Positions 23,074 to 27,087 are shown, numbered from the stretch's first letter. The stretch: 64,000 bases of DNA from Klebsiella pneumoniae (GCA_943330855.2 CALQJI020000013.1:7237-71236); one strand, 5' to 3'. The notes: a model not told the origin generated them from the letters alone. Numbers and translations: made by a program.

Positions 23074-26000
23074 CTACACCACCGGCGGCCGCGCGGGAAT
23101 GCCTTCCCACTTGGTGCCGGCTGGCAGGGTCTCGCCCTTCATCAGGAGCGAGAGACTGTTGAGGTTTGAATCCGGCTCCATCCGTGTGTCGTAGAGCACG
23201 AGCGAGAGGCCGCCGATGGTGCAGCGGTCGCCCACGTCCACGGTGGACATCTTCATCACGCGGTCCTCGAAGAGATGCGTCTGGAGGGTGGCGTCAGCGT
23301 TCACGCACACATCGTCACCGAGGCGGACGAGGTCATGCTCGGTGATGTCCGTGGTCTCCAGATATACGCGCCTGCCGATGCGTGCGCCCATCGCCCGGAA
23401 TACCCAGCAGATGAAGGGTGTGCCTTGCAGGATGCTAACGAGCCAGGCGTTGCTCAGATGCTCGTGGACGGCGTTCACCAGTTCGTTGCGCCAGACGAAC
23501 GTGCTCCAGAGCGGGCGCTCGCCGGGCTGGTAGCGGCCCATGAGGCTCCACTTCAGCGCGATGAGGAAGCCCACCGCGCAGAGGCCGCACGCGCCGTAGA
23601 GCAGCGGGAAGGTCGCGACTTGTTCCCACGGCTCCAGATAGTCCTGCAGCAGCACCACGCCGGAGAAGAGCAGGCTGGTCAGCACGACGAAGCCGCTCGC
23701 GGGCAGCAGCACGCGGATGAATTCGATGAGCGCCCGTTGCGTGCGGAGCTTCGTCGTGGGCTTGAACGTGCTCTCGGCGGAGAAGGCGGTGCTCTGCTGG
23801 CGGCTGGGCAGAAAGATCGCGGGCGAACCCAGCCAAGTTGCTCCGTGCAGAGCGGCGTCCTCGGGTTTCGTCGGCGGGAGCGAAAGGCAGCCGACCAGCG
23901 CGTTGTCCGCGACGCCGCTGCCGGGTGGGAGCATCGCGCTGTTGCCAACGAAGGCGCGCTTGCCCACGCGACAGTGATCGAGCGTGATGAAGCCGCCTTC
24001 CACGCGCGCCGCGCCGAGCGTGACGCTGTCGGCGAGGAAGCTTTCGTCGCCGATGTCGAGCAGGTCGGGCGAGACCGCGCCAGCGGTGGAGATTTCCGCC
24101 TGCTTGCCGAGCTTGGCTCCGAGCAGCTTGAACCACGGCTCCAAATAGACCGACGCGTAGAGCGGTCCGAGGAAGTCGAGGCTCAAGTCCATGAGATGGT
24201 CCACGAACCATTTGCGGACGTAAAAGAGGCTGTAAATGGGATAGCGGCCCGGCTTCACACGCCCGAGCAGCAGCCACTTGAACGCGGCGATCTCCAGCCC
24301 GAGCAGCACGACGTAGCTGAAGGCAACGAGCGGCGCGAGGGTGAGGTAGCTGTAGTAGTCGTCCTCGTAGTTGAGGTGGTTCATCAGCACCACCCCGGGC
24401 AGAATCGCAGCGAGGATGCACGCCGGGAACAGCGCGACACCGACCGCGTGCAGGCAGGCGAAGCCGAAGCGGCGGAGCGGCGAGCATTGCTCGGCCTTTG
24501 GAAATTCATGCTCACCTGCCCAGCGGCGCTCGGCGCTCCGCTTCGCTGGCGAACCGAACCAGCGTTCACCAGCGGGAACCGTTTGGCCTGCTGGCAGCAG
24601 CGACATATCCTCGAGCGCGGCACCGTCCTCAAGCGACGAGTTCTCCCGCATCACTGCGCGCGTGCCGATGAAGCAGCCTTTGCCAATGCGGATATTGCCG
24701 ACGATGAGCTTGCCGCTCTCGACGTGATAGCCCGCCGCCGTGGCGTCCGTGCCCACGCTGGTGTCGTCGCCAATATCGAGCAGGTCGTAGCAGGCGAAGT
24801 TGGGGCTGGTGAGGTGGACGTTGCGTCCGATGCGCGCCCCCATGAGGCGGAAGTAAATGTTCAGCAGTGGCGTGCCGGCGAGGTAATGCACCGGGATGGC
24901 CGACTGGATGGTGTTCACAAACCAGAAGCGCACGTAGTAGCCGCCCCACAGTGGATACTCGCCCGCGCGGTAGCGCCCGATGACGAGCCACTTGAGGGCA
25001 ATGGACGCCGCAAGCATCGCCGGGTAGAGCGCCACGAGTATTCCGAACGCGCCGAGGATGGCCTCCCAGCGCTCGAACTCCTCCTCGAACATCCATGTGT
25101 AAGTGAGGTAGGGCGCAAGCCATTGCAGCGAGAAAAAGCCGAGCACGAAGTAAAGACCACCGAGCTGCCAGAGGCCGCAGAGGAAGTGGCGGAGACGGCT
25201 CAGAGCCCGGACGCCCACGTCCGCAGCCTCTTGGGCAGGCGCCTCTGGAACCGAGGTTTGCTCCTGCGGACGTGGGCGTCCGCGCTCCAAGCGGGCTGCG
25301 AGCTTCTCCACCGTCGGCTGCTCATAGACATCAAGCATCGAAACCCCGCGCAGTTCCGGGTCCTGGCGCAGCTCGCTCACCAGCCGCGCGGCGAGCAACG
25401 AGTGACCGCCCAGCTCGCGGAAGAAATCATCCGTCACCGACACGCGTTGCGGGGCGAAGAGCTCTTCCCACACGGCCACCAGCTTGCGCTCCATCGCCGT
25501 GCGCGGCGCGATATGATTTGGGTCCACGGCCAGGTGCGCGCGCGGTTGCGGCGCGGGCAAGGCCCGGCGGTCCACCTTACCGCTGGGCAGCGTGGGCAGC
25601 GACGCGATGGCTTCAATGAGCGCAGGCACCATGTAGCTGGGCAGGCGCTCGCGGAGCGTTTCCTTCAGCGCTTGCTCCGGGACGCCTTCACCTTCGCGCG
25701 GCACGACGTAGGCAACGAGCTGCTGCACGCCGAGAACGTCCTCTCGCACCGCCACCACGGCGGCGGCCACGCCCGGGCAGGCGAGCAAGACGGATTCAAT
25801 CTCCGACAGCTCGACGCGGTAGCCGCGCAGCTTCACCTGCGAGTCAATGCGACCCCGGAACTCGATCTCTCCCGCTTCGTTGAAGCACGCGAGGTCGCCG
25901 GTGCGGTAAAGGCGCGGCGGCTCCGCACCCAGCGGGTTGGCGATGAACTTCTCCGCCGTCAGGTCGGGCCGGCCCACGTAGCCACGCGCCAGCCCGATGC

Positions 26001-27087
26001 CGCCGATGCAGAGCTCGCCTTCCTGGCCGGCGGCAACCGAGCGCTGCTGCTCATCGAGGATCGCGACGGCATAGTTCGGCACGGGCCGCCCGATGGTCAC
26101 GGGCTGCCCCGGCGTGAGGTCGCCGTAAGTCGCGATGACCGTCGCCTCGGTCGGCCCGTAGGTGTTCACCATGCGCCGACCCGCGTGCGCCCAACGCGGG
26201 ACGAGGTCGGCAGGACAGGCTTCGCCACCGACGATGAGCAAGGTCACGCCCGGCACGTCCTCGGTCATCATCGCAAGTTGCGTTGGCACCGTGCTGAAGA
26301 CCGTGACGCCCGCCGCGGTGAGCAGCCGCGAAAGTGTCGGGCCGGATTGCACCATCTCGCGCGTCCCGACCACGAGTGTCGCGCCCGCAAAGAACGCGAG
26401 CCACACCTCCTCGACCGACGCATCGAACGCGATGGAGAAGCCCTGATACACGCGGTCGGCAGACCGCACGCCAAAGATGGCTCCCTCCGCCCGCACGAGA
26501 TGGCACGCGCTGCGATGCTCAATTTGAACGCCCTTGGGCCGCCCCGTCGTGCCGGAGGTGTAGATGACGTAGGCAACGTCCTGTGGGGTCTTCCCGGTGT
26601 CGCGACGAGTGAGCGTCGTCGTGGGCTCGCCGGCAATCGCCTTCAAGTCGTGGTCGAGGATAACGATTCTGCCAGCGAAGTTCCCGGCCTGCGCCCGCTG
26701 CGCCGACACGGTGACGAGCACGTCCGCCTTCACGTCAGCGAGGATGTATTCGACGCGGTCGGCCGGGTAGTCGGGGTCGAGCGGGACGTAGGCTGCCCCG
26801 GCCTTGAGCGCGGCGAGCAAGGCCACATACACATCCATCGAGCGCGGCAACAACAGCGCGACGTGGCTGCCGGAAGTCACGCCGAGTGAGCGCAAGTGCC
26901 GCGCGAGTTGGTTCGCGCGCTGCTCGAGTTCGCCGTAAGTCATCCGCTCGTCGCCACACGCGAGCGCGATCTGCCCTTCCGCCGCCGCCGCGCTGCGCTC
27001 GAAAATTTCGTGCAGCAGCTCATTGCGGCAAAGCTCAGATGCCTTCGTGAATTGGAAGGTCAAACCCTTGATTGGCGCGTGCGGCAT
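23074..27087 (-). CDS. Pls/PosA-family single-module non-ribosomal peptide synthetase (A-T-TM/tandem C-terminal domains)
   Basis: A-domain cores YVIYTSGTTGRPKG, FDASVEE, NTYGPTE, GELCIGGIGLARGY, YRTGD, GRIDSQVKLRGYRVE and PSGKVDR. Carrier motif FFRELGGHSLLAARL. Then hydrophobic helix pairs alternate with three hexapeptide-like domains. No C or TE domain. Start chosen at MPHAPIKGL (27087). Confidence 0.9.
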   Translation of the reverse strand: MPHAPIKGLTFQFTKASELCRNELLHEIFERSAAAAEGQIALACGDERMTYGELEQRANQLARHLRSLGVTSGSHVALLLPRSMDVYVALLAALKAGAAYVPLDPDYPADRVEYILADVKADVLVTVSAQRAQAGNFAGRIVILDHDLKAIAGEPTTTLTRRDTGKTPQDVAYVIYTSGTTGRPKGVQIEHRSACHLVRAEGAIFGVRSADRVYQGFSIAFDASVEEVWLAFFAGATLVVGTREMVQSGPTLSRLLTAAGVTVFSTVPTQLAMMTEDVPGVTLLIVGGEACPADLVPRWAHAGRRMVNTYGPTEATVIATYGDLTPGQPVTIGRPVPNYAVAILDEQQRSVAAGQEGELCIGGIGLARGYVGRPDLTAEKFIANPLGAEPPRLYRTGDLACFNEAGEIEFRGRIDSQVKLRGYRVELSEIESVLLACPGVAAAVVAVREDVLGVQQLVAYVVPREGEGVPEQALKETLRERLPSYMVPALIEAIASLPTLPSGKVDRRALPAPQPRAHLAVDPNHIAPRTAMERKLVAVWEELFAPQRVSVTDDFFRELGGHSLLAARLVSELRQDPELRGVSMLDVYEQPTVEKLAARLERGRPRPQEQTSVPEAPAQEAADVGVRALSRLRHFLCGLWQLGGLYFVLGFFSLQWLAPYLTYTWMFEEEFERWEAILGAFGILVALYPAMLAASIALKWLVIGRYRAGEYPLWGGYYVRFWFVNTIQSAIPVHYLAGTPLLNIYFRLMGARIGRNVHLTSPNFACYDLLDIGDDTSVGTDATAAGYHVESGKLIVGNIRIGKGCFIGTRAVMRENSSLEDGAALEDMSLLPAGQTVPAGERWFGSPAKRSAERRWAGEHEFPKAEQCSPLRRFGFACLHAVGVALFPACILAAILPGVVLMNHLNYEDDYYSYLTLAPLVAFSYVVLLGLEIAAFKWLLLGRVKPGRYPIYSLFYVRKWFVDHLMDLSLDFLGPLYASVYLEPWFKLLGAKLGKQAEISTAGAVSPDLLDIGDESFLADSVTLGAARVEGGFITLDHCRVGKRAFVGNSAMLPPGSGVADNALVGCLSLPPTKPEDAALHGATWLGSPAIFLPSRQQSTAFSAESTFKPTTKLRTQRALIEFIRVLLPASGFVVLTSLLFSGVVLLQDYLEPWEQVATFPLLYGACGLCAVGFLIALKWSLMGRYQPGERPLWSTFVWRNELVNAVHEHLSNAWLVSILQGTPFICWVFRAMGARIGRRVYLETTDITEHDLVRLGDDVCVNADATLQTHLFEDRVMKMSTVDVGDRCTIGGLSLVLYDTRMEPDSNLNSLSLLMKGETLPAGTKWEGIPARPPVV
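25208..25282. repeat. family G palindromic element inside the Pls-like CDS
   Basis: CGGACGCCCACGTCCGCAG (25208-25226) and CTGCGGACGTGGGCGTCCG (25264-25282) are perfect reverse complements. They encode ..[27 protein letters not shown].. between the carrier domain and the first TM helix. Confidence 0.85.

Follow-up and report, generated by a model that had tools for sequence, protein, structure and literature searches.

A predicted lysine-activating Pls/PosA-family synthetase and a linked gene for a PepSY-like protein in DNA of probable Limisphaerales origin

Epsilon-poly-L-lysine is sold commercially to preserve food. Its synthetase, Pls, belongs to a family of non-ribosomal peptide synthetases (NRPSs) that yields polycationic polymers with antimicrobial and cell-penetrating activity. 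In the Pls cycle, the adenylation (A) domain adenylates the amino acid and the thiolation (T) domain holds it as a thioester (reviewed in PMC9205021). The C1 to C3 units then join the loaded lysine to the epsilon-amine of a free lysine and later to that of the growing chain, which is never covalently bound, and the linkers beside the membrane helices influence chain length (PMC9205021). Two enzymes serve as the main points of reference: Pls of Streptomyces albulus (BAG68864.1; A-domain PDB 7wew), an epsilon-poly-L-lysine synthetase from an actinobacterial, monoderm host, and PosA of Acinetobacter baumannii (ATY43264.1; PDB 8g95-8g98), which synthesizes delta-poly-L-ornithine. Here, we describe a gene of this family, which we call pls, at positions 23074..27087 on the minus strand of a 64-kb stretch of DNA (CALQJI020000013.1:7237-71236, deposited under Klebsiella pneumoniae), referred to below as the window. 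According to the open reading frame (ORF) list, Pfam, and NCBIfam, its product, window Pls, is a stand-alone Pls/PosA-family NRPS with the order A-T-TM1/2-C1-TM3/4-C2-TM5/6-C3, where TM denotes a transmembrane helix. S. albulus Pls has the same layout without a condensation or thioesterase domain, and PosA shares both the architecture and a diderm host with window Pls. The CHARACTERISED enzymes were compared with window Pls over the full length in the case of PosA and over the A domain only in the case of S. albulus Pls. The PosA sequence was used as printed in the supplement of its paper, with a few optical character recognition errors.

Window Pls almost certainly belongs to the Pls/PosA family, and the observed similarity is far beyond chance. 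The original prediction had suggested a search with TIGR02353, the terminal domain of this family, and the search returned a full-length match (residues 645-1332 on profile positions 7-695 of 695, E = 9e-205) with 682 bits against a curated cutoff of 423.1. All 14 motif strings quoted in that prediction were present, and its call of complete A and carrier domains was borne out by Pfam and NCBIfam. The A domain spans residues 29-504 (25576..27003; all parts of the gene are given on the minus strand), with matches to AMP-binding PF00501 (residues 29-370, E = 8e-88), AMP-binding_C PF13193 (residues 429-504, E = 2e-13), and TIGR01733 (444 bits, cutoff 317). The NRPS core motifs A3-A10 were all located, and the motif strings begin at residues 173 (YVIYTSGTTGRPKG), 221 (FDASVEE), 308 (NTYGPTE), 357 (GELCIGGIGLARGY), 394 (YRTGD), 412 (GRIDSQVKLRGYRVE), 501 (PSGKVDR), and 555 (FFRELGGHSLLAARL). 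The T, or peptidyl carrier, domain follows at residues 535-600 (25288..25485; PF00550, E = 7e-9) and carries the phosphopantetheine-attachment motif LGGHS, with Ser563 at nt 25399-25401. As predicted, no condensation or thioesterase domain was found by Pfam at E values up to 0.01. The Pfam set consists of AMP-binding, AMP-binding_C, PP-binding, and a weak Hexapep match at residues 789-813, and paired hexapeptide-like strings lie at residues 753/771, 993/1011, and 1237/1255.

The ORF ends at 23074, and a GTG at 27306 would give its longest form, 1410 aa in the ORF list. The correct start is ATG 27087, which yields 1337 aa plus the stop codon at 23074-23076: gene callers chose this start on 16 independent metagenome contigs, and close homologues are 1334-1345 aa long. 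These 16 contigs come from several public sequencing runs, encode an identical 1337-aa protein, and have the same genes beside it.

The C-terminal half had been predicted to alternate pairs of TM helices with three soluble units, and this layout was recovered as three internal repeats, six helices in pairs, and AlphaFold2 (AF2) beta-helices. Kyte-Doolittle hydropathy shows six strong hydrophobic segments in three pairs, at about residues 635-657/676-700, 876-904/913-940, and 1120-1148/1158-1184, in line with the six helices expected; the assignment draws on this hydropathy, the Lys/Arg charge pattern, and the AF2 helices. In every pair, Lys and Arg are concentrated ahead of the first helix and behind the second, and the inter-helix loops are short, acidic, and contain no Lys or Arg. 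Under the positive-inside rule, this pattern puts the A domain, the T domain, and each of the three soluble units on the cytoplasmic side in the predicted topology.

Each hairpin is followed by one soluble unit. The TM1-TM2 hairpin (residues about 631-703; 24979..25197) has hydropathy peaks at residues 635-654 and 674-704, the short acidic outer loop FEEEFE, and AF2 helices at model residues 16-53/58-88, which are protein residues 631-668/673-703. It leads into C1 (residues 704-869; 24481..24978), defined by repeat R1, the Hexapep match, and AF2, with a conserved KW..GR..G.YPLW segment, two helices, and a left-handed beta-helix. The TM3-TM4 hairpin (residues about 870-941; 24265..24480; outer loop NYEDDYY; AF2 helices at model residues 255-293 and 298-326) precedes C2 (residues 942-1111; 23755..24264), and the TM5-TM6 hairpin (residues about 1112-1182; 23542..23754; outer loop DYLEPWE; AF2 helices at model residues 497-533 and 538-567) precedes C3 (residues 1183-1337; 23077..23541). 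C2 and C3 are left-handed beta-helices by repeats R2 and R3, respectively, and by AF2, and all three hairpins were placed by hydropathy, Lys/Arg counts, and AF2. The three hairpin-plus-soluble units are homologous to one another at 26-34% identity in blastp (R1-R2, E = 9e-29; R1-R3, E = 5.5e-37; R2-R3, E = 9e-15).

An AF2 model of residues 616-1337, built from 33 sequences, reached a mean predicted local distance difference test score (pLDDT) of 83.7 and a predicted template modeling score of 0.87. It contains six long helices (29-39 residues) and three ladders of strands of the kind seen in left-handed beta-helices. It is in agreement with the published AlphaFold/RoseTTAFold model of PosA, in which three beta-helices with approximate threefold symmetry sit on a six-helix bundle (PMC10522769), so the two C-terminal domains share a predicted fold. 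Foldseek against the PDB (to April 2026) matched the model only to hexapeptide acyltransferases and gamma-carbonic-anhydrase-like trimers, one unit each, and a PDB sequence search with the C-terminal half gave the same picture of gamma-carbonic anhydrases and hexapeptide transferases. No solved polymerization domain was found in the PDB to that date, by sequence or by fold, the matches being generic left-handed beta-helix proteins. Because these matches cover single units only, it appears that the polymerization domain of no family member has been solved, and our literature search likewise found no cryo-EM structure of a Pls/PosA C-terminal domain.

The trimeric left-handed beta-helix (hexapeptide) acyltransferases, such as maltose/galactoside O-acetyltransferases, serine acetyltransferase, and LpxD, and the gamma-carbonic-anhydrase-like proteins thus share the fold of each C1-C3 unit and also set three beta-helices side by side. 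Unlike the acyltransferases, window Pls fuses its three beta-helices in one chain and interleaves them with membrane hairpins, and its acyl donor would, by analogy with Pls, be a carrier-protein thioester on its own polypeptide.

The specificity code was read from a MAFFT alignment to GrsA-PheA, which gives DAWTIAAICK at the canonical positions. The residues of window Pls at these positions are D222, A223, E226, S265, I285, G287, T309, V317, I318, and K504, or DAESIGTVIK, which reproduces the code that had been read by eye. The GrsA register agrees with a match to 1amu, in which residue 222 falls on chain residue 235. HMMER pocket alignments to 7wew (S. albulus Pls) and to 8g95-8g98 (PosA sequence) returned the same residues, so the reading is independent of the GrsA sequence used. 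Against 7wew, FDASCEE, VVSTVPT, LLIVGGE, and NTYGPTETTVVA pair with FDASVEE, VFSTVPT, LLIVGGE, and NTYGPTEATVIA of window Pls, and in the alignment to 8g95-8g98, PosA differs at the four expected positions (M, H, N, and S).

The code of S. albulus Pls is DAESIGTVVK, with lysine as the experimental substrate (Patel and Gulick 2023, PMC10522769). Window Pls is identical to it at nine of ten positions and has a conservative change from V to I at position 9. The original prediction had also pointed to a lysine-type code; this stands, with S. albulus Pls as a better comparator than the BacB code used there. The other codes reported are DMEHNGTVSK for PosA (ornithine), DFECLSAVTK and DFEYVGTVTK for the synthetases of poly-diaminobutyric acid (DAB) and poly-diaminopropionic acid (DAP), respectively, and DGESVSVVNK for poly-beta-lysine synthetase (PMC10522769). 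PosA differs from window Pls at positions 2, 4, 5, and 9, which includes Met218 in place of Ala. Position 2 (Ala, Met, or Phe) has been proposed to set the accepted side-chain length, and the M218A change in PosA increases lysine activation; the Asp at position 1 and the Glu at position 3 bind the alpha- and side-chain amines of the diamino acid (PMC10522769). Window Pls has Ala at position 2 and retains the diamino-acid-binding pair as D222 and E226. DAESIGTVIK itself was already tabulated, as "Lys" (predicted), for a protein from an "Acidobacteria bacterium" metagenome-assembled genome (MAG; PMC10522769, Supp. Table 2). On these pocket residues, lysine is quite probably the monomer of window Pls. 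We also considered a polymer of beta-lysine, DAB, or DAP and rejected it: the DGES.. and DFE.. codes depart from that of window Pls at position 2 and at other positions, and next to pls there is no gene for an aminomutase or for DAB/DAP supply.

The code recurs across a wide set of relatives. The nearest named homologues of window Pls are annotated as "Pls/PosA family non-ribosomal peptide synthetase" in Limisphaerales and Verrucomicrobiota MAGs (86% and 66% identity), and an unnamed homologue cluster is 96% identical. Limisphaerales/Verrucomicrobiota MAG proteins (e.g. P0004, P0012, and P0081) and the "Acidobacteria bacterium" protein PYV28785.1 match at 58-96% identity over the full length and have the same code, and two of the MAGs (L003 and L008) share synteny. 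They show no essential difference from window Pls and are orthologues and close paralogues, named by NCBI and uncharacterized. In the GTDB species genomes, at least 588 stretches carry a relative of the C-terminal domain, the best from a Verrucomicrobiota MAG (L001, 93%) and the second from a Limisphaerales MAG (L002, 90%). About 60 of the 65 full-length relatives, from six or more phyla, retain DAESIGTV[I/V]K. They include members of Verrucomicrobiota, Planctomycetota, Acidobacteriota (including the cultured Geothrix limicola), Myxococcota, Bacteroidales, and Methylococcaceae, and DAES-coded relatives extend down to 41% C-terminal identity. HMMER returned at least 859 family clusters at E <= 1e-30 from 1.84 billion representatives at 50% identity. 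The family is therefore large and its lysine-coded branch widespread, as already published for the phyletic spread of the Pls/PosA genes.

By these relationships, the source of the window is probably an uncultured member of the Verrucomicrobiota, order Limisphaerales. The synteny of a PSCyt/PSD1 gene with a DUF1501 gene, typical of the Planctomycetota-Verrucomicrobiota-Chlamydiota (PVC) group, supports this assignment. The record titles of five MAGs with close pls homologues and PVC-type synteny (L003, L008, L058, L011, and L018) read "Proteobacteria bacterium," "uncultured Klebsiella sp." or "uncultured Bifidobacteriaceae bacterium," and these labels look like binning or taxonomy errors.

We placed window Pls in a neighbor-joining tree of 84 full-length family representatives and PosA, computed without support values and with PosA as its sole experimental anchor. 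The DMEH (ornithine-coded) sequences and PosA form one clade, the DFE- and DGES-coded sequences fall in clades of their own, and window Pls lies inside a DAES-coded group of uncharacterized sequences, away from the PosA clade. Window Pls is thus a clear family member that groups with lysine-coded sequences and is not a close relative of the actinobacterial Pls.

Taken with the homology to the Pls family, the code suggests the same catalytic cycle with L-lysine, and window Pls likely makes an epsilon-linked lysine homopolymer by the Pls mechanism. The cytoplasmic A domain would adenylate L-lysine and load it as a thioester onto the phosphopantetheine arm at Ser563 of the T domain. The three homologous beta-helix units would pack as a pseudo-trimer on the six-helix membrane bundle, where the C-terminal module would catalyze attack on the thioester by the epsilon-amine of a free lysine or of a non-covalently held chain. 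The cycle would then repeat, and the polycation would exit through the membrane part of the enzyme. The architecture, topology, fold, and lysine-type code are features of window Pls itself, whereas the lysine substrate, the epsilon linkage, the chain length, and export are expected by analogy with S. albulus Pls and PosA; with the former it would share both the substrate and the iterative mechanism.

Several observations weigh against this interpretation. Position 9 of the code is Ile and not Val. In the pocket segment, the match to PosA (139.8 bits) outscores that to S. albulus Pls (120.5 bits), so the lysine call rests on the pocket residues and not on overall relatedness. PosA, the only characterized enzyme compared over the polymerization domain, makes poly-ornithine. 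S. albulus Pls has no close relative among the 150 best family representatives, and the members of the clade of window Pls are all uncharacterized. In the window, a tblastn search with a relative's phosphopantetheinyl transferase (PPTase; from L010) found no PPTase gene, and pls has no pldII-type peptidase gene beside it, in contrast to the pls operons of actinobacteria. Linkage chemistry and chain length are also not readable from sequence.

The pocket scores also bear on an alternative in which a Pls/PosA-family polymerase uses a different monomer, such as L-ornithine, D-lysine, or another basic amino acid, and makes a different cationic homopolymer. PosA is the closest characterized enzyme aligned over the whole length, with 42% identity in A-T and 34% over 714 aa of the polymerization domain. 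S. albulus Pls shares about 55% identity in the 126-aa pocket segment and scores 324 bits over the whole A domain. Code-based prediction has failed in this family before: predictors could not assign PosA, whose closest code was that of a lysine domain although it uses ornithine. A Bdellovibrionales homologue preferred arginine, and a Chthoniobacterales relative (L078) has an alanine-racemase-like gene directly 3' of pls. However, the nine positions shared with an experimentally lysine-specific Pls include the Ala at the chain-length position, the ornithine-coded sequences are all DMEH and keep to their own clade, and no racemase, aminomutase, or supply gene for ornithine, DAB, or DAP stands beside pls in the window. 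We therefore consider another monomer unlikely.

A lysine-activating enzyme might instead transfer one or a few lysyl units to some other acceptor, for instance a small amine or a component of the envelope, and release no free polymer. The acceptor of Pls is a freely diffusing amine (PMC9205021), so its choice is open in principle; the abstract of PMC9606270 still calls the biological role of these polymers unclear. In this diderm host, no gene for outer-membrane export lies next to pls. A conserved periplasmic partner protein, described below, also exists, and under this alternative it would serve a process at the cell surface and not antibiotic handling. Against such acceptor transfer, all seven characterized family members make homopolymers, PosA produces free 7-12-mers in the diderm A. 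baumannii from a single-gene operon, and the polymerization domain of window Pls is conserved over the full length of TIGR02353. Transfer to another acceptor is thus improbable, and we retain the lysine homopolymer as the expected product.

The partner gene is the one point at which the original prediction missed a feature of the neighborhood. It was right that no other NRPS, polyketide synthase (PKS), tailoring, or polymer-degrading gene is adjacent: no NRPS, PKS, tailoring, or peptidase gene was found within about 10 kb of pls, which is thus stand-alone in the NRPS sense. It overlooked, on the same strand and beginning 15 nt past the pls stop, a gene for a 330-aa protein (22066..23058, minus strand) whose linkage to pls is conserved in relatives. 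An intrinsic terminator scan found no terminator-like site between the two genes on the minus strand, and they are probably co-transcribed. The product is a putative secreted or periplasmic protein composed of a signal peptide and, by AF2 and Foldseek, five PepSY-like (DUF2874/BLIP-like) modules in tandem. These two methods are the basis of the fold assignment; the Pfam/NCBIfam matches are sub-threshold (Emfourin, E = 0.0034; PepSY, E = 0.018). The AF2 model (pLDDT 88.7) shows five repeats of one helix and four strands, and the best Foldseek matches were 3u1w and the DUF2874/BLIP-like proteins 4hbr, 4ipb, 4k61, and 4fr9, which are periplasmic proteins of Bacteroides. No protease-inhibitor function is claimed from the sub-threshold Pfam/NCBIfam matches.

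In a database of 5.8 billion proteins, only 29 homologues of the PepSY-like protein were found, which makes the family tiny. Among the loci checked, its gene lies 3' of pls in six relatives (L002, L003, L005, L008, L009, and L010) and is absent from the closest genome, L001. In three of the six (L005, L009, and L010), Pls is 60-66% identical to window Pls and the partner 28-38% identical, and the gene order is pls, a gene for an Sfp-type PPTase, and the PepSY-like gene. Linkage that persists in such diverged relatives is suggestive of a functional tie, and the PepSY-like protein might then have a role in the polymer process. A more specific proposal, in which pls, with or without the PPTase gene, and the PepSY-like gene form a functional unit in Limisphaerales-related Verrucomicrobiota and the repeat protein is a so far unrecognized factor for handling, immunity, or export of the polycation in a diderm cell, is tentative and, in our estimate, doubtful. 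If the genes do form a two- or three-gene unit, the polymer may differ from the Streptomyces epsilon-poly-L-lysine in chain length or linkage. The actinobacterial pls lies in an operon with a pldII peptidase gene, whereas pls in the window instead precedes the PepSY-like repeat gene. The pldII operon is a contextual trait of the actinobacterial clade (Streptomyces, Corynebacterium) and is not needed for the chemistry.

An Sfp-type 4'-phosphopantetheinyl transferase gene lies directly 3' of pls in many relatives: L005 (10106-10690), L009 (3863-4369), L010 (6760-7443), L011 (4857-5372), L018 (9769-10263), and L067 (5977-6321), with Pfam ACPS/AASDHPPT_N matches for L010 and L067. In the window and its nearest relatives, the PPTase gene has been lost from that place. 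In Holophagaceae/Geothrix homologues, stop-to-stop ORFs reach 1550-1700 aa, with a C-terminal extension of roughly 200 aa. A PPTase-like extension is in frame with pls in L042 (10335-10538) and L044 (10296-10535), and long ORFs also occur, judged by ORF length, in L040, L049-L052, and L055. This arrangement suggests a natural Pls-PPTase fusion.

The lack of a PPTase gene in the window raises the question of whether pls in the window is silent or non-functional, either cryptic or never phosphopantetheinylated or expressed. Diverged relatives carry the PPTase gene directly downstream or fused, and no product of the Corynebacterium variabile Pls was obtained from its native host under the conditions used. 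A scan for sigma-70-like promoters, which is uninformative for Verrucomicrobiota, found none; the two terminator-like sites found, both on the plus strand, are fewer than expected by chance and equally uninformative. Several findings speak for a working gene, however. A PPTase gene can lie anywhere in the genome, the 4-kb ORF is unbroken and keeps every catalytic motif, orthologues at 83-96% identity retain the full length, and the identical protein recurs on the 16 contigs from several samples. We therefore regard a silent gene as very improbable.

The novelty of the finding is modest. Window Pls is an uncharacterized member of a family that is already annotated automatically, and its code has been published as lysine-type. 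The original prediction that the product would probably be undescribed was overstated: isopeptide polymers of lysine are already known as a compound class, the family is auto-annotated in Limisphaerales MAGs, and its spread is published. Only the producer lineage would be new, and our literature search found no characterized Verrucomicrobiota Pls. A proven producer in this phylum would add to the actinomycetes, A. baumannii, and fungi known so far and could supply enzymes with a different control of chain length. The practical value is limited, since papers and automatic annotation already cover the gene class, its broad occurrence, and the exact code. What is new is confined to the conserved periplasmic PepSY-like partner, which might be relevant to how a diderm tolerates or exports a membrane-active polycation.

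Other genes stand 3' of pls in other lineages. In L054 (Myxococcales), a beta-lactamase/S12-type serine hydrolase gene follows directly (PF00144, E = 7e-59), with a similar protein encoded directly after pls in L074, and this hydrolase could be a polymer-degrading or self-protection enzyme. In L078, the alanine-racemase-family gene begins 82 nt after pls and might point to a D-amino-acid polymer there.

The neighbors of pls in the window encode PSCyt/PSD1, DUF1501, DUF1080 (3-keto-disaccharide hydrolase), DeoC, and HhH-GPD glycosylase proteins and two GDP-mannose-dehydratase-like proteins. The PSCyt1/PSCyt2/PSD1 gene (1181 aa; 17036-20581, plus strand) is followed by the DUF1501 gene (about 20590-22056, plus strand), a pair typical of Planctomycetota and Verrucomicrobiota. 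The pair converges on the PepSY-like gene, with stop codons 10 nt apart. On the other side of pls lie tandem GDP-mannose 4,6-dehydratase-family genes (32758-33771 and 33755-34807, plus strand; PF16363, E = 9e-152 and 3e-119), with a 762-aa TPR protein encoded near them. Also nearby are a 904-aa ORF without a Pfam match (34895-37609, minus strand) and a gene (40287-43523, minus strand) whose 1078-aa product has a GH114 domain. The only tRNA gene in the window is a tRNA-Leu (GAG) at 13073-13157 on the minus strand.

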